Shown: in pieces, positions 6,480 to 19,555 of the stretch
Numbering within the stretch: position 1 is the first letter of the stretch
How the letters are laid out: each line of letters starts with the position of its first letter
Assembly (NCBI RefSeq): GCF_000392435.1
Contig: NC_021219.1
Span: 1 to 32,000, forward strand
Length of the DNA stretch: 32,000 nucleotides
DNA from: Candidatus Saccharimonas aalborgensis
Lineage (GTDB): Bacteria; Patescibacteriota; Saccharimonadia; Saccharimonadales; Saccharimonadaceae
Reading direction: 5' to 3'
Notes under the pieces: model-generated
The model's database searches: none
What the model was told of the DNA's origin: nothing
Seen by the model: the letters and a program-made list of their open reading frames with translations, nothing else
Program-made: the position numbers and the translations under genes

Positions 6480-7526
6480 TTACACTGTCTGAGCCAAAGC
6501 AGCGTTGAGGATTGCTACTTCGCGACGTTTCATCATTTCAAGCCCAACTTTGCTACCATCTTCATCTGTAGTGGTCGCCGACTGAATCAGCCGAATTGCC
6601 TCGGCGTATGAAGGCACCCAGACGAGCTCCATTCCCTGAGCAGCTTCTTTTTGGGTAAGGTTCGTACCGACAAATTGATCTGTAAGTGCCCGATAACAGT
6701 AAGAGATTTGACGCATGCCATCAAAATAACGCTGCTCGATGACAACTCCCAGCGGGACAATAGTGTGAATAGTATACCCGGCTTCTTCCTGTACTTCACG
6801 CCGTAATCCATCCAAACGATCCTCATTCGTCTTAATACCGCCACCCGGTAATTTGTAGGAGCCGGTCTTAGTAAAGTGCATCAGGGCTATCTCACCCCGA
6901 CCATTTATAAGAACAACTCGCGCTGCATGACGAGTGTAGGACATCGCCCGGTCCTTTGGATCCACAAGCCCAAGCTCATGTTGATCTTGAGAAAGAATGA
7001 TCGGCAGTCCATCGGCACATGATCGTTCGATTATCGAGCAAATAAACCCACTTTTTGCCGCAGTATAGGCCTCCCTGTTATTTGCGTGCTGTTCGGCTAG
7101 TTGCCTCTTGAGAGCAGCATACTCCTCTCTTGCGTTACTGTGAGTACGTAAATAATTACGAAATGCAAGGACATCGGTATAAGCGGGGCTATCTTTTAGG
7201 ACGATGTGCAGGTAGTGGGTCCTGGCATGATCGGGTCCCTTGGGGACAAATATTTCCCAATCTTTGATCCGCTCGGGCATCCAGTGATACCCCAATGCCT
7301 CAAGTCCAGAGATATTTTGATATACTTCGTCAAATGAATCAACACCTATGAGGATATCAATGATCGGCTTGGCTACGAGACCCTGTACGGCCGTACTGCC
7401 TACGTGATGAATATCCTCACCCGAGAAGACGGGTTGAAGCAGCTCCTTTTCGTGCAAAAAGTCACTTGGCCAATCTCTACTGTAGTTGACCAGTTTCACC
7501 GTCTCCCTCGCGAGTCCAGCTGCCAT
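6480..7526 (-). CDS. GrpB-domain / NUDIX hydrolase fusion protein
   Basis: The N-terminal half has the GrpB (UPF0157) signature IHHVGSTAVQGLVAKPIIDILIGV. The C-terminal half has the NUDIX box GGGIKTNEDRLDGLRREVQEEAGY. Starts 21 nt after the fusA stop. Confidence 0.8.
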   Translation of the reverse strand: MAAGLARETVKLVNYSRDWPSDFLHEKELLQPVFSGEDIHHVGSTAVQGLVAKPIIDILIGVDSFDEVYQNISGLEALGYHWMPERIKDWEIFVPKGPDHARTHYLHIVLKDSPAYTDVLAFRNYLRTHSNAREEYAALKRQLAEQHANNREAYTAAKSGFICSIIERSCADGLPIILSQDQHELGLVDPKDRAMSYTRHAARVVLINGRGEIALMHFTKTGSYKLPGGGIKTNEDRLDGLRREVQEEAGYTIHTIVPLGVVIEQRYFDGMRQISYCYRALTDQFVGTNLTQKEAAQGMELVWVPSYAEAIRLIQSATTTDEDGSKVGLEMMKRREVAILNAALAQTV

Positions 7527-7547: not shown

Positions 7548-9635
7548 CTACTTCGATCGCTTCTCAATAATCTCTTGAGCAACGTTTGGTGGTACTTCCT
7601 CGTAGTGGGCAAGTTCCATTGTGCTAGCGGCACGACCCTGTGACATACTGCGGATGTCACCGGTATAACCAAACATATTTGCCAGCGGAACGATTGCTTT
7701 GACGAGTTTTGCTCCGCCCATGAGGTCCTCCATGGCTTCAATGCGACCACGACGGCTGTTGAGGTCACCGATGATATCACCCATGAACTCCTCAGGTGTG
7801 GTGACTTCGACATGCATCACAGGCTCGAGAATAATTGGGGTCGCTTGCTTGATACCGTCCCTTGCGGCAAGCGCACCAGCGAGCATAAAGGCCAATTCGC
7901 TCGAGTCAACATCGTGATAACTACCGTCGTAGAGTGTCGCCTTGACGTCGACGACAGGATAGCCAGCAATGACACCACTTTCGAGGGTCTCGCGGATACC
8001 TTTTTGGACAGCGGGTCGGTACTCCTGCGGAACGACACCGCCCTTGATCTCGTCGATAAACTCGAAGCCCTTTCCAGGCTCATTTGCTTCAAACTTAACC
8101 CATACATCACCATACTGTCCACGACCACCTGATTGCTTGGCATGCTTACCCTGGACTTGGCTAGTCCCCTTGATCGTCTCACGGAAGGCGACTTGCGGTT
8201 CACCGACATTTGCCTCGACGTTGAACTCACGTTTCATGCGGTCGATGAGGATCTCGAGATGAAGCTCACCCATGCCCGACATAATCGTCTGGCCTGTTTC
8301 GTCATCAGTGTGAATGCGGAAGGTTGGGTCTTCTTCGGCGAGGCGCTGCAAAGCGATACCCATTTTTTCCTGGTCGGCTTTGGTCTTTGGCTCGACGGCG
8401 ATACTGACAGGCGGCTCAGGAAATGTAATGGCCTCGAGTGCGATAGGATGAGCTGGATCACTTAGTGTGTGGCCGGTAAAGGTCGTCTTGAGGCCAACCA
8501 CGGCTGCGATATCACCTGCACCAATCTTATCGACATCCTCACGCTTGTCGGCATGCATACGGACGATACGGCCAACTCGCTCTTTTTCGCCAGAGGTGGT
8601 GTTGAGCACATAGCTTCCAGCCGTCAACACGCCAGAGTAGACACGAACGAAGATAAGTTTTCCGACAAATGGGTCAGTTGCGATCTTGAAGGCAAGAGCA
8701 GCCATTGGCTCTTTGTCGTCAGGCTTACGACTAATTTCATCACCTGTTTTGGGATTCTTTCCCCAAATTGCGTCAACATCGAGAGGACTTGGCAAGTAAT
8801 CAACCATGAGGTCGAGAACCTTCTCAACAATCACTCCGCGACCATCACCACCAGTGACAAGATAGAAGTCACCGGCCAGGACACGCTTGCGCAGCGCGCT
8901 CTTAAGCTCATCAACCGAGATTGCTTCCTCGCCATGCTCAAAGAACTTCTCCATAAGTGCATCGTCTGCCTCGACTGCGGCTTCCACGAGGAGACTACGA
9001 GCATTCTTTGCCTTTTCGTGCATATCTGCAGGAATCTCGCCCTGAACGAGCTCATGATCGGTAAAGTCGGTGTAGGTATACGCCTTCATATCGACAAGGT
9101 CGATGACGCCGTTGATGTCTTTTTCGAACCCAATTGGCAAGTGAATCGGCAGGGCATTCTTGCTGAGACGGCTATGGATAGACTCGAGCGACTTGTAGAA
9201 ATCACCACCGATCTGGTTGATCTTGTTGATGAAACAGATGCGGGGCACACCATACTTGTTTGCTTGACGCCAGACAGTTTCAGATTGCGCTTCCACGCCC
9301 ATTTTGCCATCAAACACCGTCACCGCGCCGTCCAGAACGCGAAGCGAACGCTCAACTTCAGCGGTAAAGTCAATGTGACCGGGAGTATCGATAATGTTGA
9401 TCTTGTGGCCCTTCCAGAAACAAGTCACGGCGGCAGAGGTAATGGTGATACCGCGCTCACGCTCCTGCTCCATCCAGTCAGTCGTCGTCTCACCATCGTG
9501 CACAGCACCGATCTTGTGGCTAAGACCAGTTCGATACAAAATCCCCTCTGTTGTCGTGGTTTTGCCGGCATCGATGTGTGCAATAATACCGATATTACGA
9601 AAGTCCTTGAGTGGGACGTTGGTTGGAGTTGCCAT
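7548..9635 (-). CDS. fusA: Elongation factor G
   Basis: 695 aa. G1 [22 protein letters not shown], and full-length EF-G domain pattern. AAGGA SD. Confidence 0.97.
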
Positions 9636-9718
9636 AGGGGTTCCTTGCTCTAAATGTGGAGCGACTTAACTAATAGTTTTTGCTGTTTTTTGCCATAACG
9701 AAACAGCACTTACTATCA

Positions 9719-9747
9719 ACTATACCACAAGAAGCTCATCCTGGCTA
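9719..9747 (-). promoter_or_regulatory. Possible fusA promoter (TAGCCA-N17-TGgTATAGT)
   Basis: Reverse complement has the extended -10 TGGTATAGT (9727-9719) and a weak -35 TAGCCA (9747-9742). An 8-bp hairpin (9681-9708) lies in the predicted 5' UTR. Confidence 0.35.
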
Positions 9748-9754
9748 GCGATCG

Positions 9755-10420
9755 CTACATATCTGTCGGAAGTAGTTTTTCGATACAGACACTGTCGGTA
9801 TTTTTGAGAATGAAAACTACTTCATCCAATTCTTCCCGAGACTGAGGCTCAAGTGCAGTATCGTATACACTGCTTTTGCCAACCAAAAATCCGCATGTTA
9901 GGCGAGCTTCACCAAGTTCGATCAAAACAGGACCTTTTATTGTACCGACGATCATTTTGCCCGAGGAGAGGGGTAAAACTGTGTCGATAGCATCTGACCG
10001 ACCAGGGGAAAGAGAGCAGACTGATACTCCATCACCTATTATTTTTACTTGATCGCCAGCACAGAGATGGAGCATGTCAGCAAATTCAATCGTTAGTATC
10101 TGTTTGATGGCTTCTCGATCAGAGAGAGATAACTGTCGCGGCGCCCCTTGTTGCCCAGCTGCAAGCAACGCTTCCAAAAGACTATGTACTGCGAGAACTT
10201 CACGCGTCACATCAAGAGTATACTGTTCAAGGGCAGCATCATAGCCGTCAACTTGTACCTCAATGGGTTCATGTCGAGCAATGTCTGCAAAGGCAATTTC
10301 CTCTCTACTGGCCGCCTCAAGTCTTGGGAGCAAGAATGGATCGTTCGCCAACTGCCAGCGTATTATGCCATCAAACCGTTGCTCATCATCTCCAGGACGC
10401 TCAGCCAAGACGCTCGGCAT
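9755..10420 (-). CDS. Hypothetical acidic 221-aa protein (cassette protein C)
   Basis: GAGGAGG SD 9 nt upstream of the ATG. 15 nt after the stop of the 786-aa gene. The C-terminal half resembles the type-2 module of the two upstream proteins (see findings). Confidence 0.7.
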   Translation of the reverse strand: MPSVLAERPGDDEQRFDGIIRWQLANDPFLLPRLEAASREEIAFADIARHEPIEVQVDGYDAALEQYTLDVTREVLAVHSLLEALLAAGQQGAPRQLSLSDREAIKQILTIEFADMLHLCAGDQVKIIGDGVSVCSLSPGRSDAIDTVLPLSSGKMIVGTIKGPVLIELGEARLTCGFLVGKSSVYDTALEPQSREELDEVVFILKNTDSVCIEKLLPTDM

Positions 10421-10435
10421 CAGGCAATGCCTCCT

Positions 10436-12796
10436 CTAGATGAGTAGTTGTTCGATCTGGCTAAACGGGACATACCGCACCTGCTCTTTCTCACTTTCGG
10501 TAATAGAATAGACAACGAGGATAGGCTCGATGGTCTCAAGTGCTCGGTACCCATAGATGACGTCGACAACACCGCAGGCGTATCCCGTATCGTTTGGATC
10601 AGTGCTCTCGTCCATAGGCGCACGTCCCCCATCTGGCTCATAGACACCGCCCTTGATAACAAGTCCTCTATCGGGGGTGAGGAGATCACGCAACACACGT
10701 GCTACCACATGACCAACTCGTTCCATAGTTGCCACTTTTACAGGATCAGACTCATCTCTAGACAGTGCAAGATGACGACACATTTCTTTTAATTGATCGA
10801 GAGAGCTGAGTGCTTTTAGCTCATGGAGAACTTCTACTTGACAGAGTTCTGCTTGGACCTGTCGCAGCACCTCCTCTATCTCGGTATGATCGCTTAGCTC
10901 ACCATTACCCGCCCAGTTCGACAGTGCGTCCTCGCGATTCCGGATTACTTCTAGTTCAGGAATACGGAAGTAGACCGACTTGTCTAGAGATACTTGGATA
11001 TATTTACGCACGTCGACGACGGCGATTGGCATCATTGTGCTACCTTCGAGTGTCAGTTGTGTCCCGGCGTTTGCCTTGACATCACGAAGCAGCATACCAA
11101 CCCGAAAACTGTAGATGTCTTTCTCGTCATTTTCGCTACGGAAACATTTTACTTCCTCATAGATGCCGCATTGTGAGGTAGTAATATTCCCAGCGACAAG
11201 TTGTGTGCCTTTCATTACAATACTGAACTCATGTTCCCTTGAATCACCGATAATAGAGAGAGTTGACTGGGGCACTAAAACCCCTTCGCCAAATACTTCT
11301 ATCAGCACCTCGATGGTGTCATAAAACTTTCCAAACGCAGCAATCATAAGGTTGAGCTCACGCATGGTTGCCAAAAACTCATCTCGATCTGAAAACGTTT
11401 TTGCACTGAGTTCTCGACAGCGCTCAGCAAAAAGGTTCAGGGCATGTTCGGCTTTCTCGAGGGTTTCACGTTTTGTTTCTCCGAGAAGTTCCTGAGCCAT
11501 CGCCAAAACAACCCCCGGATCGATCGCCTCAGCGACTTCATCCTCCGCAGCCTGTTCGGCAGCGAATAGCTCGACGAGAGACTCTGTGTCTTGAAACGCT
11601 GATCCGTCAGCAGCTACCTCTGGCACTTCGTTTTCCCCATCTGCATGTTCGACGGCAGTATCGACGTGCCGAAATGGCAGTTTCGCTGGGTCTGGTCGTG
11701 TTGTCTGATAGTTAATAACGGCATCAGCTGTAAAAAAGTATGGTGTCCTGCCGCCATCACGTTCGGGCACGGCTTCTAACGCGTGAAATGCTGGTAGATA
11801 GGTTATCTCGGTATCATAATCACCTGTTCCTGCTTGTTCCCATAATCGCATGCCTTTAACGTAGAGAATTCGAGGTCGGGTGTCATAATGTGGCCGAACA
11901 ATCGGTTCCAGGTCAGCCAATTTTCCAACAATTTTCCCGCCAATCCAAAAGAAATATGGCTCAGTCCCATCAAAATCAAGTTGGCGAGTAAGATAGCGCT
12001 CAAGCATGTCAATGATACTTATCCTGGTATGGCCAGCACCGTTGACCTTTTGCCAGTCAATCGTAATGGCAAAATCATCAAGTGCTCGCATGATCGCCTT
12101 TTCACGATTCTTAGCATAGTTAATTCGTTCGATCATTGCGTCAATTTGTTTTTTTATATCAGGTAGCAGCTCAGTGATTTCTCGTTCTTCGGAGCGATCA
12201 GACATATGCGGTAATTGAATATTTTCGATATCACCAATCTGGAGAGTAAACCACGCTGTGTCTTCGGGGTAATCCTCCGCCTTGGAGAAATCAAGCACCA
12301 GGTGGCGATAGGTCCCAGGTAGAAGTCCGTCGATGCTCTCGAAACCCCTTATCTCAGTTGTTTGCTCATTAAATCCAATCAAATGGAGCGGAAAATGCGT
12401 AACCTTGTAGTGCTGACCCCTCAGATCAAGTTCAAGCTCAGGAAATACATCATCAAATAACTCTTCAACATCTTTTTCGGTATCTCTTAGGTAATCGGTC
12501 AAGAAGGTCGTATGACGAATCCGACCGGTGACCATAACTGTCGCCTGTTGATAGCCTAGCTCACGAAGCTCAACATTGAGATCAACGAGAAGTCGTTGAA
12601 TCTCTTCCTCGGTCACATCGCCTCTGTTGATTTGAAGCTCAACCTGCTCGGCTTTTTTTAGCAAGGCCGCGAACCCTGCATCGAACTGTTCCCTTACATC
12701 GGGAGAGGTTTGCCACTCAGAGGCCACGATGGCGTCAAAAACTTCTGATTTCTTTTGGCTATCATCATCAGAAGGTGGCATTTCCATCACTGTCAT
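10436..12796 (-). CDS. Hypothetical acidic 786-aa protein (cassette protein B), internally duplicated
   Basis: Long uninterrupted ORF with no catalytic motif I recognise. Looks like two copies of the unit found once in the upstream protein. Confidence 0.75.
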   Translation of the reverse strand: MTVMEMPPSDDDSQKKSEVFDAIVASEWQTSPDVREQFDAGFAALLKKAEQVELQINRGDVTEEEIQRLLVDLNVELRELGYQQATVMVTGRIRHTTFLTDYLRDTEKDVEELFDDVFPELELDLRGQHYKVTHFPLHLIGFNEQTTEIRGFESIDGLLPGTYRHLVLDFSKAEDYPEDTAWFTLQIGDIENIQLPHMSDRSEEREITELLPDIKKQIDAMIERINYAKNREKAIMRALDDFAITIDWQKVNGAGHTRISIIDMLERYLTRQLDFDGTEPYFFWIGGKIVGKLADLEPIVRPHYDTRPRILYVKGMRLWEQAGTGDYDTEITYLPAFHALEAVPERDGGRTPYFFTADAVINYQTTRPDPAKLPFRHVDTAVEHADGENEVPEVAADGSAFQDTESLVELFAAEQAAEDEVAEAIDPGVVLAMAQELLGETKRETLEKAEHALNLFAERCRELSAKTFSDRDEFLATMRELNLMIAAFGKFYDTIEVLIEVFGEGVLVPQSTLSIIGDSREHEFSIVMKGTQLVAGNITTSQCGIYEEVKCFRSENDEKDIYSFRVGMLLRDVKANAGTQLTLEGSTMMPIAVVDVRKYIQVSLDKSVYFRIPELEVIRNREDALSNWAGNGELSDHTEIEEVLRQVQAELCQVEVLHELKALSSLDQLKEMCRHLALSRDESDPVKVATMERVGHVVARVLRDLLTPDRGLVIKGGVYEPDGGRAPMDESTDPNDTGYACGVVDVIYGYRALETIEPILVVYSITESEKEQVRYVPFSQIEQLLI

Positions 12797-12844
12797 ATGC
12801 CCTAGTAAATAGAGGAACCACCTCTATTGCAAGCATAGCCGCTA

Positions 12845-13804
12845 TCATGTTGGCTTGAGTAAGTCATAGAGAAGCTCTCGTGATGACCGAAGCTGCACGA
12901 CAGCGCTCGCCGGTACTTCCCTATGAATATCATCTCCTGTCTCAGGCAGAAACGTTACTTCGATGAAAGGTACGGCGATATGATGCGCTTTGTCCAGATC
13001 ATCCGAGCCCGGGAGAACACTCATACGGATTGATTTGTAGCGGAAAAAGCCGACAAATGGCCCTTTGGTTTGTCCAGGATGGACAGGCTCGCTCTGTTGT
13101 AAATAGTCACCCGAAAATGCCATAAGGTACGGAAAATCTCTATTGCCAATCGTCCGTTGGTTGATGACCTCCTGGATGTCTTGAAGACGCTGCATGCTTG
13201 CTTCGTCGGTCGGGACAAACTCGATAGCATAGCTCGCTAGCGCCGGTAGAATGGTTTCGAGCGATCCAGCTTCTGGCAGGTGCTGCTCAAGTCTCGCTAG
13301 CTCATTTGGGTGAAAATAACGTAGCCGACGTTCACCGCCATCAGGGTCAAAGCGAGAAAAATCATATTTGAGGCTGCCGATAACTGATTCACCTCTCGCA
13401 ATAGAGCTCGTCGAACCGGGCACGCTAAAGATATGCACGATCTGTCTGCCTGGCAAAGCGGTGATTTCCTCAGTGTTTGGCTGAACATCATCAATGGCAA
13501 ACCCCAGGCTAACGACAGGCATAGAATCAAACATGCGTATTTCGACATGCCCAACGTGCGGATTCATAAACCATGCCGATCCAGTTGCCGGCAACAAAGC
13601 ACCGTAAATACCGATGGCTCGCCATTCGTCATCAAGTTCAGCTATGAGTGAAGTTAGCTCTTCCTCTGAAAAGCACTGTCGATCGGCTCGCAGCATGGTA
13701 TTGAAATCGCGTATATGACCATACAGCTCGTGTACTTTTTTTGGCAACATAACAGCTTCGAGCGATTCAATTGGATCAATATTTCTTCGTTGCACCTCTG
13801 CCAT
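12845..13804 (-). CDS. Hypothetical acidic about 319-aa protein (cassette protein A); start uncertain
   Basis: The ORF extends to 13936, but that extension overlaps the divergent gene start at 13903. ATG 13804 (MAEVQRRNIDP...) leaves a 98-bp divergent promoter region. No clear SD at any candidate start. Confidence 0.65.
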   Translation of the reverse strand: MAEVQRRNIDPIESLEAVMLPKKVHELYGHIRDFNTMLRADRQCFSEEELTSLIAELDDEWRAIGIYGALLPATGSAWFMNPHVGHVEIRMFDSMPVVSLGFAIDDVQPNTEEITALPGRQIVHIFSVPGSTSSIARGESVIGSLKYDFSRFDPDGGERRLRYFHPNELARLEQHLPEAGSLETILPALASYAIEFVPTDEASMQRLQDIQEVINQRTIGNRDFPYLMAFSGDYLQQSEPVHPGQTKGPFVGFFRYKSIRMSVLPGSDDLDKAHHIAVPFIEVTFLPETGDDIHREVPASAVVQLRSSRELLYDLLKPT

Positions 13805-13876
13805 AGTATCTGTATTAAATCTTGTAAGGATCCTCAGAGCAAGCGTAAACAGTTCGCTAATAGCGATAGAGTATCC

Positions 13877-13882
13877 TATAAT
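13877..13882 (+). promoter_or_regulatory. -10 box TATAAT for the 13903 gene
   Basis: TATAAT lies 20 nt upstream of ATG 13903, with a GGAG SD (13892-13895) between. The -35 is weak. Confidence 0.4.
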
Positions 13883-13902
13883 GATCAGCATGGAGTAATC
13901 CC

Positions 13903-15009
13903 ATGAGTACCAATGTAGAGTCAAAACCGACATCATGGATTGATCGCCTCAGAGGACGTAAGTTCATGAGGAAAATTGGTGCGGGGGCCATGGCTGTCCA
14001 GGCTATCACCGGCATTACATCAGAGATGGGATTTTCGTTGATGCCAAGCGCGGTCTATTCTTACGCCGAGACCGATGAGGCTAAGACCTACACCCCAAAC
14101 ACTTTCTGTATCTTCCTCCCCGGGAGAGGAATTACTCGACTGGCGCGCGACTTTGCGGATGCCTATCAGCCTACAACCAGACAGTATTGTCGGAGCACCG
14201 TCTTGGAATATAGCGAGGGAGGGATAAGTGAAAAAGAGCTTGAGCATAGCATCCGGCGATATGTCAACGACCACGCCATACCAGACAGACCTATTCAGCT
14301 CGTGGTAATTGCATCAAGTATGGGCGGTAACGTGGCAGTTCCGGTTTTTGGTGCTATCGCTAGAGATACCGAAAATACCTCCCAGCCAATTTCTACTCGT
14401 GGACTGCTTCTCGATTCTTCACCGGCCGGAACAATTAGCCTCAAAGGTCCGATCCAAGGATTTGCCGTCGGTACAATGTCAGGACTTCAAGGAAAACCTG
14501 TTCATGGTATTTTTGAACCGCCGCTGCGCGTTGGATTTGAGTTTGCATCAAGGGCTGTCAATCATGATTTTCCCGAATCGGCTTCCACCGTTTTTTCCTA
14601 TCTAGAGGATGGCGTCCGAGTTGCAAATGAAACACGGGGTCGGCTTGATATGGATGAAATGAATATTATTAATAACTTCGATCCAGATAAGCAAGACTAT
14701 GGGTTTCTCAAAAAAGCCAATGCAGTAATTGTTTACACTCATGCCGATACGGAAGCGGCGGATGTAACTGTACAGTGGTCGGTGGCAAGTTGGCTATGGA
14801 AAACTGCACTCGCTCGTCAACAAATTAGTATGGGCGAAATAGCCATCAAAGACGGTAGACATGCAAATCCAAACACTGCACCAGACCCATACAACCAAGC
14901 GTTACTCTCACTTCTAAAACAAACAGGTCTACCGAGTATCGCCGATCTGCGACGCGAGGAGTTCTACGACCACTTTGATCGAGTTGGAAACGATAGATTG
15001 CCTAGTTAG
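13903..15009 (+). CDS. Putative secreted alpha/beta-fold hydrolase (esterase/lipase-like)
   Basis: N-terminal basic and hydrophobic signal-like segment RLRGRKFMRKIGAGAMAVQAITG. Nucleophile-elbow-like VVIASSMGGNV (AxSxG). 368 aa. Confidence 0.6.
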   Translation: MSTNVESKPTSWIDRLRGRKFMRKIGAGAMAVQAITGITSEMGFSLMPSAVYSYAETDEAKTYTPNTFCIFLPGRGITRLARDFADAYQPTTRQYCRSTVLEYSEGGISEKELEHSIRRYVNDHAIPDRPIQLVVIASSMGGNVAVPVFGAIARDTENTSQPISTRGLLLDSSPAGTISLKGPIQGFAVGTMSGLQGKPVHGIFEPPLRVGFEFASRAVNHDFPESASTVFSYLEDGVRVANETRGRLDMDEMNIINNFDPDKQDYGFLKKANAVIVYTHADTEAADVTVQWSVASWLWKTALARQQISMGEIAIKDGRHANPNTAPDPYNQALLSLLKQTGLPSIADLRREEFYDHFDRVGNDRLPS

Positions 15010-15014
15010 GGGGG

Positions 15015-17309
15015 TTAACTGTGCTGATCAGGTGTCTGCTGGCTGCTACCAGGACGAACGTCAGTAGTCATTGGCGCCGGAAATCCGCTACCCGCGGCGA
15101 GCGGCTGTGGTGATCTTCGGGCGTGAACAAACACAAGGAGTGCACCTGCGATTACCATAATGAGTGCAAACAGCGATGCAACGATGACGAGAATAATCAT
15201 AAGCGGTGATGAGAGATTGAAGGCAGATGCCCCAGACTCATCACTTGTTTGTGACTTTGCTCCCTCAGCAAACTTATTGATAAAGTAGTTATCATTATAT
15301 TTTGCCTGTAGTGTAGAGAACGTTTTTGAGGCTTCAGAATACCGGCCAGCCCCAAATTGGTCAAGACCCTGTTGCCAGAGTGAAGCGACCGAACCATCCG
15401 TTTTGAGGGAAATATTGTTTTTTGAGAGCAAGTTACGCAAATCGTTTGCGTCACGCACATACCCGTTTGTAAAACATGTCTCACCATTACGGCTACATCC
15501 TTGGATCGTAGCACCGTATGTGTTCAGCCCAACTTGCACACCCTTTTTGTTGAACGCCGGACCACCGCTATTTCCTGATGCAATACGTGCAGAGGTGATG
15601 AGAAGTGTATGACCACCGGCGTCGCCGTTTTGCTTTATCTCTAGTACCTCTCCCTGTGTAATACTTGGGTAGGTTTTGACACTTTTTGTGCCGAGACCAT
15701 CATCAACAAATGCGGGATATCCTATAGCAGTAACTTCTTCGCCTTGCCCAATATCTGAGGCTGTTCCCAGTGATACTACCGGAAAATCACCCTCAGCCTT
15801 GATAATTGCGACATCCGAATGTGATGATGACGCATTAAATGTCATGGAAGATTCATCAAAATCATAATCTACAAGACTAGCTTTAATACGAGTTTTGTCG
15901 TATGTCCAACTAGAGCTATCAATATTAAATTTCAGAGGAGTATCTGATGTTTGGACGACAATATGCCGCTCAGTATTGGTTCGCAAGACGCCAGTTAGCG
16001 GCGTTCTAGAGCCGATTAAGATAAGCGCTTGTCTTGCCTGTTTGTCACCGGCTTTTGCTTTGGCCATAGTATCATTGATCTGATCCTGAGTAGCATAGCC
16101 CGCCTGGACTGCATACTTGAAATAGTTATTGAGCACCGACGGATCGTCTATATAGGAGAGCCCGTAGAGCAGAACATCAAGCTGGACAGTATAAACAACA
16201 TGACCGTTGGTAGCAATATACCCGTCGCTTGAGATAAATGACCCGCTGCCAATTACCGGAATACCACAGAGATGTTTCACTGAAAAACTTGCTCCGTTGT
16301 CAGCACGTAAGGTCAAGTCGGTACACGAGAAAACACCGATCCGTACCGTGGCAGGTTGGTTGTGGGCGACAACTGGAACGAATGTTTGACTGTTGAGCAC
16401 ATCGGGTACATTTGCCGTGTCTGATGCTGCATTCTTTGTGGGATTCACCGTGTCTGTCGAAGCAAGATCAAACGAAGTAGCCACCATTGTCGATATACCC
16501 GCAGAAACAACTGAACTTTCTGCATAGGCAGAATCAAGCGGCTTTGAGTAGGAGACACTTGCAATCACCTTCATATAGCTTTGATATTCGTCAAGCGTCT
16601 GATCGACAAAGCTGTCGGTAAACGATATCCAGTAGGGGCGATCGTTTTGAACTGTCATAAGATAGTACGAATAACTTGAAGTTGTACTACCAAGGAGATC
16701 GTACGTATGCACGGCAAGAATCTCTCTATAGTCCACCGATCCGATCTTTATTATTTTGTCACTCTGTACTGTGTCGCCATTCTTTGCGATCGTCTCTTTT
16801 TGGCGTGCCACAAGTAATTCAATCGGAGAGAGAGCCTGGTATTTCTGTTCTAATTTACTTTTGTCGAAGTAATTCTGATGATGATTTGTGAATAATCGCA
16901 TCCCTGGATGTGAAATATAGTCATATTCACCCTTTGGGCTAGTGGCAGCAATAGGATCAATCGTTATCATCACATAGGCACGACGGGTATCGAGATCTGT
17001 TCCGTCGTATTCTTCTCCCGTCACCATACCAGGCTTCTGAACTTTATCCAATACTTGACCGTGAGCGATATGCGTTTGGGAATTGTACGTGATGGCCATA
17101 CCCAAATCAGAACGAATAGTTTTATCATACTTCTCAGCAATCGTATCCTGAACGATAGCTTTTATCTTTGTTTGTGCAGATGGATTAATGTAATTTGTAA
17201 TATTTTTCCCGTAAGTAAACAACAACCCGATGCAAGCGACGAGCAGGATGCTGCTTACAAGCAAAATAATACTCAGGTGTTTCTTGTGTCGATGTTCGAG
17301 CCGTGGCAT
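15015..17309 (-). CDS. Trypsin-like (S1 family) serine protease with N- and C-terminal membrane anchors
   Basis: Catalytic triad contexts IATNGHVVY (His), SDVAIIKAEG (Asp), ASGNSGGPAF (Ser). N-terminal TM LSIILLVSSILLVACIGLLF. C-terminal TM LMIILVIVASLFALIMVIAGALLVFV followed by a Pro/Gly-rich tail. AAGAGGA SD. Confidence 0.85.
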   Translation of the reverse strand: MPRLEHRHKKHLSIILLVSSILLVACIGLLFTYGKNITNYINPSAQTKIKAIVQDTIAEKYDKTIRSDLGMAITYNSQTHIAHGQVLDKVQKPGMVTGEEYDGTDLDTRRAYVMITIDPIAATSPKGEYDYISHPGMRLFTNHHQNYFDKSKLEQKYQALSPIELLVARQKETIAKNGDTVQSDKIIKIGSVDYREILAVHTYDLLGSTTSSYSYYLMTVQNDRPYWISFTDSFVDQTLDEYQSYMKVIASVSYSKPLDSAYAESSVVSAGISTMVATSFDLASTDTVNPTKNAASDTANVPDVLNSQTFVPVVAHNQPATVRIGVFSCTDLTLRADNGASFSVKHLCGIPVIGSGSFISSDGYIATNGHVVYTVQLDVLLYGLSYIDDPSVLNNYFKYAVQAGYATQDQINDTMAKAKAGDKQARQALILIGSRTPLTGVLRTNTERHIVVQTSDTPLKFNIDSSSWTYDKTRIKASLVDYDFDESSMTFNASSSHSDVAIIKAEGDFPVVSLGTASDIGQGEEVTAIGYPAFVDDGLGTKSVKTYPSITQGEVLEIKQNGDAGGHTLLITSARIASGNSGGPAFNKKGVQVGLNTYGATIQGCSRNGETCFTNGYVRDANDLRNLLSKNNISLKTDGSVASLWQQGLDQFGAGRYSEASKTFSTLQAKYNDNYFINKFAEGAKSQTSDESGASAFNLSSPLMIILVIVASLFALIMVIAGALLVFVHARRSPQPLAAGSGFPAPMTTDVRPGSSQQTPDQHS

Positions 17310-17420: not shown

Positions 17421-17900
17421 TTAGGTACGAGCAAAGTGAGCAAACGCTCGGTTTGCTTCAGCCATCTTGTGCGTATCTTCTTTTTTCTTGTAGGCAGCAC
17501 CAGTTTCGTTGTAGGCATCGACAATTTCAAGCGCCAGACGTTTTTCATATGGCATACCATTTCGGGCACGTGCACTCTGTACGAGCCACGTGAAGGCATA
17601 GTGAAGTTGACGATGACCTTGGACGGGAAATGGAATTTGGTAGTTCGCACCACCGACACGACGGCTCTTAACTTCAAAGTTTGGCGAAATGTTTTTGAGT
17701 GCTCGCTCGAACACTTCAAGCGGTTCCTCGCTTTTGAGTGTTTTTGCCGCCTGCTCGAGCGCAGTATAGACCATGCGCTCTGAACCCAGCTTTTTTCCAT
17801 CGAGCATTGATTTGTTGATAAGGCGCTGCACAAGTACACTCTGGTATTTGCGGTCAGGCTTAATCGTGCGTTGTAATTTCTTGGTTACTTTACGAGGCAT
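17421..17900 (-). CDS. rpsG: 30S ribosomal protein S7
   Basis: 159 aa; MPRK...DRKYQSVLVQRLINKSMLDGKK...ANRAFAHFR, typical uS7. Confidence 0.97.
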   Translation of the reverse strand: MPRKVTKKLQRTIKPDRKYQSVLVQRLINKSMLDGKKLGSERMVYTALEQAAKTLKSEEPLEVFERALKNISPNFEVKSRRVGGANYQIPFPVQGHRQLHYAFTWLVQSARARNGMPYEKRLALEIVDAYNETGAAYKKKEDTHKMAEANRAFAHFART

Positions 17901-17902
17901 GA

Positions 17903-18316
17903 CTACTTCCCTTCCTTCTTGGTACCGTACTTGCTACGGCCCTGTTTGCGCTTTGATACGCCCTGGAGATCGAGTGCACCGCGCACGATGTGATAGCGCA
18001 CACCCGGCAGGTCAGGTACGCGGCCACCACGAACCAGGACCACGGCGTGCTCCTGTAGGTTGTGGCCTTCACCACCGATGTAAGCCCAAACTTCATGACC
18101 ATTCGTCAGACGAACACGAGCAACCTTCCGGAGGGCTGAGTTAGGTTTCTTTGGGGTTTTTGTTGTCACCTTGACACAAACACCACGCTTGAGTGGCGCA
18201 TCTTGGTCATAGTAACGAACCTTGAGCGCGTTATGAATACGTCCCAGTGCTGGAGACTTTGACTTCTTACCAGCGACCGAGCGCGGTTTGCGCACCAATT
18301 GATTGATAGTTGGCAT
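17903..18316 (-). CDS. rpsL: 30S ribosomal protein S12
   Basis: 137 aa; [12 protein letters not shown]...[18 protein letters not shown]...[17 protein letters not shown]. Confidence 0.97.
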
Positions 18317-18565: not shown

Positions 18566-19555
18566 ATGAATAATCAACCGCCTCCCCCCATTAGCCAAGA
18601 TGATTTCACGACACCGTCTGCACTTCCGCCGACTGACCCTCTCTTGGGAAAGGTTCGATCTGAGCGCCGCTGGCATCCACACCGCGCAAAATTACTGCTT
18701 ATTGGTGTTATAGCTACGGTGACCTTGATAGTGATTGGGACATTTCTGCTCTTTGGCCGACCCACGCCAAAAAATACCGTTGAGCAGCCACAGACCCGAG
18801 TGGACACGGTGCCTGATCTCACTGCGGCAGAAACAATCATCAAGCTGAGAAGCGTATTTAAAGGGAGCGCTCTTGCCCCCACTCCACCCAGCGTCCCTAT
18901 ACAAACTGCAAATCACAACTACTATACCGTCGTGACAGATCCGTCAGAGGTAGCAAAAACAAGTCTTTCGGGCCCAATTAATTACCCCGATACTGATGAG
19001 ATTATTGTTTCCATAAAGTCAGTCTTTGAAACAAATCACTTTTCACCGATTGTCCTAAAAGATGGTGGCAACAATGCCTCAGTCCTTATTGAGTACACCC
19101 GAAAGGACGTTGTTTGCCAGCTTGATGTCAGTTCACCGACAACCGTGAAACCCATTACCCAGTCGGTATCGGTGAGTTGTCTCGATATGAAACAGTACGA
19201 AACGCTCGCCCGAGCCCAAGAACCCTTTTACCGCGCCTACTCACCGGCATTAACAGCGAGCTATGCGATTGCGCTCATTGGCGCTCCGAGCGTAAAAAAC
19301 GGTGGTACCGCGGGATACCAGACTGCGATCATTGCTGTTGGTACCGTTGCCGAACGTACGAAGGTAACAGGCGGCGTCACTCCTCGATTTTATGCTGCGA
19401 GCGACCAAGTATGGCATTACTTTACCGATCGCGTCGGCGATCTCACCTGTGACATCTACGCAACGAACGATATTAAAACTGCTTACGCAGGGACACCGTG
19501 TTATAGCACTGCCAGCAAAAAGATGAGTGTCGTCAAAGCGCCAAATACGAAATAA
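18566..19555 (+). CDS. Hypothetical single-pass membrane protein with Pro-rich N-terminus and extracytoplasmic domain
   Basis: 329 aa. TM LLLIGVIATVTLIVIGTFLLF. I recognise no family. Confidence 0.65.
   Translation: MNNQPPPPISQDDFTTPSALPPTDPLLGKVRSERRWHPHRAKLLLIGVIATVTLIVIGTFLLFGRPTPKNTVEQPQTRVDTVPDLTAAETIIKLRSVFKGSALAPTPPSVPIQTANHNYYTVVTDPSEVAKTSLSGPINYPDTDEIIVSIKSVFETNHFSPIVLKDGGNNASVLIEYTRKDVVCQLDVSSPTTVKPITQSVSVSCLDMKQYETLARAQEPFYRAYSPALTASYAIALIGAPSVKNGGTAGYQTAIIAVGTVAERTKVTGGVTPRFYAASDQVWHYFTDRVGDLTCDIYATNDIKTAYAGTPCYSTASKKMSVVKAPNTK

Follow-up and report, generated by a model that had tools for sequence, protein, structure and literature searches.

The str operon of "Candidatus Saccharimonas aalborgensis" (Saccharibacteria/TM7) contains three consecutive genes, here called A, B, and C, between rpsG and fusA. 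On sequence comparison, they represent in S. aalborgensis a fast-evolving, clade-restricted cassette with the general form X-A-B-C, carried by a narrow group of Saccharibacteria. They fall within a window of 32,000 nucleotides, the whole stretch of DNA analyzed here, and its source genome was identified by an exact-sequence match. Profile comparisons indicate that A and B are true paralogues derived from one two-part unit of ~340 residues. The two appear to make up a new family with a new fold, and the novelty lies at the level of family and fold rather than mechanism. The explanation that we prefer, to which we assign a probability of roughly 0.45, is that A, B, and C are nonenzymatic acidic binding or scaffold proteins that would form complexes among themselves and bind a positively charged, probably variable partner, with expression supplied by the str operon.

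RESULTS

Three tandem genes in the str operon

All three genes are read from the minus strand, and all are annotated as "hypothetical protein." Gene A (12845..13804) corresponds to L336_0014, a tag inferred from the numbering, since the gene lies between B and L336_0015; it encodes 319 amino acids (aa) from an ATG at 13804 and holds one N-type copy of the two-part unit. Gene B (10436..12796; L336_0013) encodes 786 aa with a net charge of -66, arranged as two tandem units with a disordered acidic linker. Gene C (9755..10420; L336_0012) encodes 221 aa and is preceded by a strong AGGAGG ribosome-binding site. A first-pass annotation, made from the sequence alone, had reported three co-directional tandem open reading frames (ORFs) at 12845-13804/13936, 10436-12796, and 9755-10420, with gaps of 48 nt between A and B and 15 nt between B and C, and the ORF list confirmed this. 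It had also placed the trio among translation genes, as is the case, the exact location being the str operon from rpsG to fusA. Pairwise BLASTP and a structure search were among the checks that it proposed.

Profile comparisons relate A to the N half of B and the two halves of B to each other

The first-pass annotation described A, by eye, as one copy of module 1 followed by module 2 and described B as the same arrangement twice over. All-against-all BLASTP, run on A, B, C, and each half of B, was silent apart from one marginal match, which paired A 82-189 with B 54-159 (25% identity; E ~0.01), and it was superseded by profile comparisons. With hhalign, the A family matched the N half of B at 93.6% (E 2e-7), and at 99.5% (E 1.6e-22; 291 columns) when additional A-like sequences were included. 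The hidden Markov models (HMMs) of A and of the N half of B also matched each other reciprocally. This homology to the N half of B over the full length of A bears out the single-unit description of A.

The internal duplication of B was assessed with an N-type profile of 39 sequences and a C-type profile of 27 sequences. The two profiles aligned end to end over 282 columns (P 5.4e-5; score 42.6; HH probability 67%). Reversed profiles scored ~13 and block-shuffled profiles scored 18.0 ± 2.9 (maximum, 24.8; n = 40), giving a z of ~8.5. When each unit was divided into its two parts, the first parts matched each other (N1 with C1, 24.2 against a null of 13.4 ± 2.1), as did the second parts (N2 with C2, 32.4 against 20.9 ± 2.2, with a maximum of 30.5), and both scores were above null. 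Cross pairs of the half-profiles scored at noise level. Kinship between the two parts of one unit (N1 with N2, C1 with C2) was considered and rejected, since these profile scores were also at noise. Because counterparts score above null while cross pairs and within-unit pairs do not, the unit does have two different parts, as the first-pass annotation had proposed, and its by-eye pairings of modules 1 and 2 were reproduced in the hhalign register. We concluded that the two halves of B are, at the level of sequence profiles, co-linear distant homologues and that the doubled arrangement proposed for B is correct.

AlphaFold2 (AF2) modeled B with a predicted local distance difference test (pLDDT) score of 81.5 from a 29-sequence alignment, and DSSP applied to this model gave the same order of secondary-structure elements in both halves. 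The N-type unit of B (11687..12690, minus strand; aa 36-370, ending ...GGRTPYFFTADAVINY) consists of a helical hairpin and beta-domain 1 (aa 36-196), followed by a helical bundle and beta-domain 2 (aa 197-370). In the C-type unit (10439..11479, minus strand; aa 440-786, with the C-terminal end ...VRYVPFSQIEQLLI), a helical hairpin and beta-domain 1 are again followed by a helical bundle and beta-domain 2. The second beta-domain closes with a conserved VP-S-I-x-x-L strand pair. The disordered acidic linker between the two units (11549..11665, minus strand; aa 378-416) has pLDDT values below 50 at residues 378-381, 384-394, and 398-416, and its alignment occupancy is 0.44. Invariant columns are mostly aromatic, glycine, or proline, and no conserved catalytic-type residues were seen.

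Ahead of the N-type unit, B begins with an acidic-aromatic peptide (12691..12778, minus strand; ~aa 7-35, PPSDDDSQKKSEVFDAIVASEWQTSPDVREQ); residues 1-32 have pLDDT values of 36 to 59 in the AF2 model. The corresponding motif, P..[DE][DE]..F[DE].[LI][IV]......DP, stands by eye at the start of many B, A-like, and C-type proteins and also of C-position proteins elsewhere. The window's own A is without this peptide.

C is probably a diverged half-unit

C had been described as ending in a module-2-like domain. This assignment fails because C matches neither of the second-half profiles, with scores of 12.3 for N2 and 13.1 for C2, both within null. In other genomes, a gene of 194 to 235 aa occupies the C position after B, and these genes form one family. 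C aligned co-linearly with the C-position family at a score of 24.1, modestly above a null of 16.6 ± 2.0 (maximum, 21.3). The C-position family in turn matched the first half of the C-type unit over 148 to 149 columns (P 1.8e-4 to 7e-4; score of 31 against 15.9 ± 1.9), and this match was specific. Compared directly with the first-half profiles, C gave a weak match to N1 (19.2 against a null maximum of 17.1) and scored at noise level against C1. In the register of the C-position family, C 99-131 (SDREAIKQILTIEFADML...AGDQVKIIGDGV) parallels B 468-506 (SDRDEFLATMRELNLMIAAF...IEVFGEGV), which is the segment that the first-pass annotation called module 1. AF2 modeling of C failed (pLDDT 35); the model is poor because the shallow alignment available for C held near-identical sequences only. 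Judged from these profile matches, C is probably a diverged half-unit that corresponds to the first half, i.e., a helical hairpin and the first beta-domain.

A, B, and C are acidic proteins that match no described family

Searches of Pfam, NCBIfam, PHROGs, PADLOC, and PDB sequences returned no match for A, B, or C, for the 29-sequence family profile, or for family members taken singly, in agreement with the earlier statement that the three proteins carry no known-family motif. The best matches fell far short of the family cutoffs; the one to Ribosomal_L29 (14.5 bits against a cutoff of 24.5; E 0.036), for example, is helical noise. The structure search likewise led to no characterized fold: Foldseek with the AF2 model of B found no match in PDB or BFVD.

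The isoelectric points (pI) of A, B, and C are 4.99, 4.58, and 4.43, respectively. Aspartate and glutamate account for 18.7% of the residues of B and 16.7% of those of C, so the description of the trio as very rich in these residues is accurate for B and C but not for A, which is only moderately rich (13.8%). Acidity is kept across the family despite divergence, with net charges of -53 to -86 for B, -18 to -34 for C-type proteins, and -18 to -30 for A-type proteins. None of A, B, and C has a transmembrane (TM)-like segment; no TM segment was present in any family member, and no signal peptides were found.

The cassette varies between loci, and B is its constant member

An exhaustive phmmer search with B as a single-sequence query against 1.84 billion representatives (E ≤ 1e-3) found 30 proteins, most of them 700 to 780 aa long and 24 to 34% identical to B; the range of the family may be underestimated by this search. 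A match to P0078 (2524 aa, repetitive) was set aside as spurious. A few homologues of ~350 aa match one half of B only, namely, the N half for P0077 and P0080 and the C half for P0079. The last of these is the 344-aa protein of locus L012 and, together with a 369-aa protein of the same locus, represents stand-alone C-type proteins. A word-index search, even with the family alignment as input, reached no relatives below 88% identity. Searches for related loci in genome and metagenome collections, made with a single degenerate peptide pattern as the query, gave two loci each.

In every locus whose contig reaches far enough, rpsG and fusA enclose B, which shares the strand of its flanking genes. 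Both boundaries were seen in the S. aalborgensis-type loci (L001-L004, L009, and L017) and in L005, L006-L008, L010/L018, L014, and L015; one boundary was seen in L012 (rpsG) and L016 (fusA). By HMM classification, the general layout is rpsG-X-A-B-C-fusA, with much variation. X is separated from A by 1 to 51 nt, A from B by 44 to 48 nt, and B from C by 3 to 15 nt; the distance to rpsG is 87 to 138 nt (579 nt in L010, by ORF call), and that to fusA is 91 to 119 nt. The X family (~230 aa, near-neutral) is unrelated to the other families and absent from the window. L005 and L014 are without a C-position gene. L016 has an A-like gene, two genes resembling the N half of B, and B itself; L011 has an A-like gene followed by a gene resembling the N half of B, twice; and L012 has two tandem genes resembling the C half of B. 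The X family and the unclassified cassette proteins (254 aa in L005, 283 and 236 aa in L014, and 225 aa in L012) showed no significant relation either among themselves or to the unit, and no Pfam or NCBIfam domain was found in the cassette neighbors across loci.

Two independent assemblies of a close relative, L009 (6904-6947) and L017, have a clean deletion of A (window 13817-12851). A different deletion in L001 (window 13424-12753; L001 9875-9976) truncates A and removes the first 15 codons of B. The trio is therefore not conserved as a fixed unit, an idea raised in the first-pass annotation: B is never missing, A is lost or cut short in these three loci and duplicated elsewhere, the C-position gene can be missing, and a fourth family, X, is found in other lineages. 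The same annotation asked whether a protease and a hydrolase are constant neighbors. They are not, being present only in the S. aalborgensis-type loci, with X found elsewhere. A functional link of the cassette to these two genes was rejected, both being confined to the S. aalborgensis lineage.

Two of the Logan assemblies, L006 and L007, have B genes that are 100% identical. In L006 (6979-7955), A is split into ORFs of 179 and 136 aa, and in L007 (5773-6440), X is split into ORFs of 132 and 89 aa. These frameshift-like splits could be sequencing errors or ongoing pseudogenization.

The cassette genes evolve rapidly under purifying selection

We compared the ratio of nonsynonymous to synonymous substitution rates (dN/dS) against relatives of 86 to 93% identity. 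Values were 0.25 for A, 0.14 to 0.17 for B, and 0.21 to 0.26 for C, compared with 0.005 to 0.02 for fusA and 0 for rpsG. By this measure, A, B, and C are real genes under purifying selection, with relaxed or fast evolution. Across loci, identity to the window is 87 to 94% for elongation factor G (EF-G) and 85 to 94% for ribosomal protein S7, against 23 to 32% for B.

These data bear on the possibility that the shared modules are coincidental or that the ORFs are spurious or decaying remnants. Such an explanation would fit the marginal or negative pairwise BLASTP results, the loss of A in close relatives, and the failure of C to match the unit significantly in direct comparison. However, the profile scores for A against the N half of B, and for the N half against the C half, are far above empirical nulls; dN/dS is 0.14 to 0.26; AF2 folds B confidently from the 29-sequence alignment; and homologues persist across the clade with conserved length, charge, and position. 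For A and B, the profile comparisons and dN/dS largely refute coincidence or decay, and overall we consider it very improbable.

Within B, a recombinant divergent allele block spans 11597..12229 (minus strand; ~aa 190-400). In comparisons with L002 and L009, the proportion of synonymous sites that differ (pS) is 0.74 to 1.0 in the block and the corresponding nonsynonymous proportion (pN) is 0.15 to 0.24, whereas pS in the flanks is 0.02 to 0.13. Nucleotide identity between strains is 94 to 99% but falls to 69% inside the block. L009 has a second divergent block in B, at approximately residues 480-690. Outside the trio, the hydrolase gene (window 14100-15000) has 86 to 89% nucleotide identity to L009 in a background of 95 to 99% and is a second local hot spot of divergence beside the cassette.

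The variable region of a diversity-generating retroelement would likewise appear as a hypervariable block with sharp edges in a gene that is near-identical elsewhere, and such elements are common in bacteria of the candidate phyla radiation (CPR). Their variable regions are typically roughly 100 to 150 nt, though, and the B block is far longer, at ~600 nt. The mutated fraction in the block was 0.21 for A, 0.27 for C, 0.23 for G, and 0.23 for T, i.e., all four bases are hit equally (21 to 27%). Third codon positions dominate, with 114 substitutions against 47 and 24 at the other two positions. No second copy of the block that could act as a template repeat was found in the window, and there was no reverse-transcriptase domain among the window ORFs scanned. 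The unbiased spectrum, the third-position excess, and the lack of a template point to recombination with a diverged allele and not to a retroelement; the latter is rejected by the substitution spectrum, and we give it next to no chance.

The evolutionary pattern also raises the prospect of a role in conflict, with A, B, and C acting as immunity, decoy, or sequestering proteins against cationic toxins, antibiotics, or phage factors, or as effectors whose export to the host would not depend on a signal peptide. Saccharibacteria are epibionts of Actinobacteria, and arrays of rapidly evolving tandem paralogues are a typical feature of immunity-gene clusters. Extreme divergence relative to the neighboring genes, tandem duplication and loss of units, old allele segments maintained through recombination, local hypervariability of the adjoining putative hydrolase in L009, and conserved acidity would all fit such a role. 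On the other hand, no cassette neighbor carries a toxin, nuclease, secretion, or defense domain; PADLOC, PHROGs, a phage tblastn search (50,697 phage records), and BFVD gave no match; and signal peptides and TM segments are absent. Typical immunity proteins are far smaller than these units, and the locus occupies a constant place on the chromosome, inside a core operon, and is not an island. Even in the divergent block, pN/pS is ~0.2, which gives no direct sign of positive selection. We regard a conflict role as somewhat unlikely. An origin as a mobile element or prophage remnant was also considered; it was rejected in view of the negative tblastn and PHROG searches and the fixed chromosomal slot in all lineages.

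Setting of the trio and its neighbors

The gene order in the window is rpoB-rpoC ... rpsL, rpsG, protease, opposite-strand hydrolase, A, B, C, fusA ... tuf. Upstream, the slot is bounded by rpsG (17421-17900, minus strand; Pfam Ribosomal_S7, E 1e-52), with rpsL (17903-18316, minus strand; recognized from its S12 translation) in the upstream boundary region. The downstream boundary is fusA (7548..9635, minus strand), which encodes EF-G and was named by the source annotation. On the rpsG side of the slot are two lineage-specific inserts, a membrane-anchored Trypsin_2 protease (15015-17309, minus strand) and a putative alpha/beta hydrolase (13903-15009, plus strand), the latter named by NCBI only and without a Pfam match. 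The C-fusA spacer (9636..9754, minus strand) holds a promoter-like site at 9747-9719 (minus strand; TAGCCA-17-TATAGT with an extended -10 [upstream TG]), recognized by consensus match only. By consensus matching alone, no terminator-like site was seen on the minus strand between A, B, C, and fusA. The promoter-like site is followed, in the fusA leader, by a 7-bp hairpin (GCTGTTT...AAACAGC). No Rfam family reached its gathering score anywhere in the window (1-32000), the leaders of the ribosomal-protein genes included.

Retention of the cassette inside the str operon would be explained if A, B, and C were translation-linked accessory proteins that bind basic parts of the translation machinery (for example the ribosomal proteins S12 or S7, rRNA, or EF-G) and act as a lineage-specific assembly chaperone, ribosome-associated factor, or regulator. 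B holds its place and strand in every lineage with a long enough contig while genes outside the operon vary, no terminator-like site separates the trio from fusA, and conserved strong negative charge would suit basic partners. However, the proposed partners are 85 to 94% conserved, against the 23 to 32% identity of B. Copy number is variable, with A lost in close relatives and C absent in some lineages, and a recombinant block of 69% identity in a background of 94 to 99% is unusual for a housekeeping factor. Moreover, the opposite-strand hydrolase gene of S. aalborgensis breaks co-transcription of the trio with rpsL-rpsG, and a promoter-like site of its own precedes fusA. No homology of A, B, or C to ribosomal-protein or translation-factor families was found in Pfam, NCBIfam, or PDB sequences, the sole ribosomal match being the L29 noise described above. 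We consider a translation-linked role unlikely.

Gene A has candidate ATG starts at 13804, 13891, and 13936. We favor 13804, though the start is uncertain, and regard the other two as less likely because of the HMM register, the deletion boundary in L009 and L017, and the frame-broken upstream extension in P0050. The A-family HMM register begins at residue 43-45 of the long A ORF. A start at 13891 would extend the protein by a hydrophobic N terminus of 29 aa, which is kept in P0051 and frame-broken in P0050, and with a start at 13936 gene A would share 34 nt with the divergent hydrolase gene. The ATG at 13804 is without a Shine-Dalgarno sequence.

Two further features flank the region. Between rpoC and rpsL, in the antisense orientation, is a 329-aa basic ORF (18566-19555, plus strand; pI 8.7) with a TM-like segment and no Pfam match; ORFs of 329 to 350 aa lie on the opposite strand at the equivalent place in L001, L002, L006, L007, and L009. 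Directly downstream of fusA, at 6480-7526 (minus strand), is a gene for a fused GrpB-NUDIX protein. GrpB is a separate 171-aa gene near fusA in L005, and in L006 and L008 a NUDIX gene stands alone, farther downstream of fusA.

DISCUSSION

In the explanation that we prefer, A, B, and C would assemble with one another through their homologous modules. Mutual assembly is suggested by the paralogy of the proteins, the tight gene spacing (3 to 15 nt between B and C), and the presence of the N-terminal acidic-aromatic peptide in many members. The negative surface of the proteins would engage a positively charged partner, and placement in the str operon would supply strong, growth-coupled expression. 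The partner may be variable or external (host, phage, or competitor) rather than part of the conserved translation core, as suggested by the very fast divergence, the turnover in copy number, and the recombinant allele blocks.

Several points weigh against this explanation. Complex formation is deduced from paralogy and gene spacing only, and the shared N-terminal motif has a by-eye definition. A is dispensable in close relatives, and the C-position gene is absent in L005 and L014, so a fixed stoichiometric trio is not present. The relation of C to the unit is weak, with a direct score against the C-type unit at noise and a failed AF2 model. The lack of a catalytic signature is weak evidence for nonenzymatic proteins in so divergent a family. 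Finally, the fixed position of the cassette may reflect mere vertical inheritance inside a universally conserved operon in a fairly narrow clade.

A more novel reading would make the cassette a previously unrecognized, Saccharibacteria-specific, new-fold system of acidic modular paralogues that is expressed inside the str operon and shields or tunes the translation apparatus, perhaps by sequestering or decoying cationic translation-targeting agents (aminoglycosides, toxins, or phage factors) that come from Actinobacteria hosts or competitors. The operon position and the arms-race-like evolution would both follow if such a translation-protecting acidic system existed, but we consider it quite unlikely. 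The trio may be an undescribed system, as the first-pass annotation suggested.

A large share of the genes of Saccharibacteria and other CPR bacteria have no known function. The cassette is a well-delimited case, consisting of a confidently foldable, apparently new two-part unit whose history can be read in half units, single units, a fused double unit, and tandem arrays, and which keeps a fixed address inside one of the most conserved bacterial operons. Its evolutionary rates and allele mosaics are of a kind more usual for genes involved in conflict or host interaction. Should the proteins have a part in translation, a core machine would carry a lineage-specific addition; should they be conflict factors, they would show that reduced genomes can accommodate an arms-race locus even within the str operon. 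With the family definition, boundaries, and alignments given here, these proposals are directly testable in cultivated relatives or by activated-sludge metaproteomics.

We found no publication on the locus tags or on a str-operon insertion in Saccharibacteria or CPR bacteria, and a Saccharibacteria transposon-sequencing paper is likewise silent; we know of no described equivalent of such an insertion. Three kinds of system are comparable in part. The target proteins of CPR retroelements share with B a localized hypervariable block in a CPR bacterium, but the B block lacks a template repeat and adenine bias and is dominated by synonymous change. From general knowledge, the cassette can be likened to polymorphic-toxin immunity arrays in its tandem paralogues, frequent duplication and loss, fast divergence, and acidic, apparently nonenzymatic proteins. 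It differs from them in having no nearby toxin gene or domain, in its fixed core-operon slot, in showing no sequence or fold similarity, and in the size of its units, which are ~340 aa, whereas immunity proteins are roughly 100 aa. Acidic mimics of nucleic acid or of charge, such as phage T7 Ocr, offer a further likeness, again drawn from general knowledge, in that the cassette proteins have a strong, conserved net negative charge, are soluble, and are without catalytic motifs. Unlike Ocr-type mimics, the cassette proteins have no structural match in PDB or BFVD and are much larger, multidomain, chromosomal, and vertically inherited.

A further frame of reference is the canonical bacterial str operon, rpsL-rpsG-fusA-tufA. 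The flanking genes here keep the canonical order and orientation (rpoB-rpoC ... rpsL-rpsG ... fusA ... tuf), but two to five extra genes of no known family stand between rpsG and fusA, and in S. aalborgensis the slot additionally holds the protease gene and the opposite-strand hydrolase gene.

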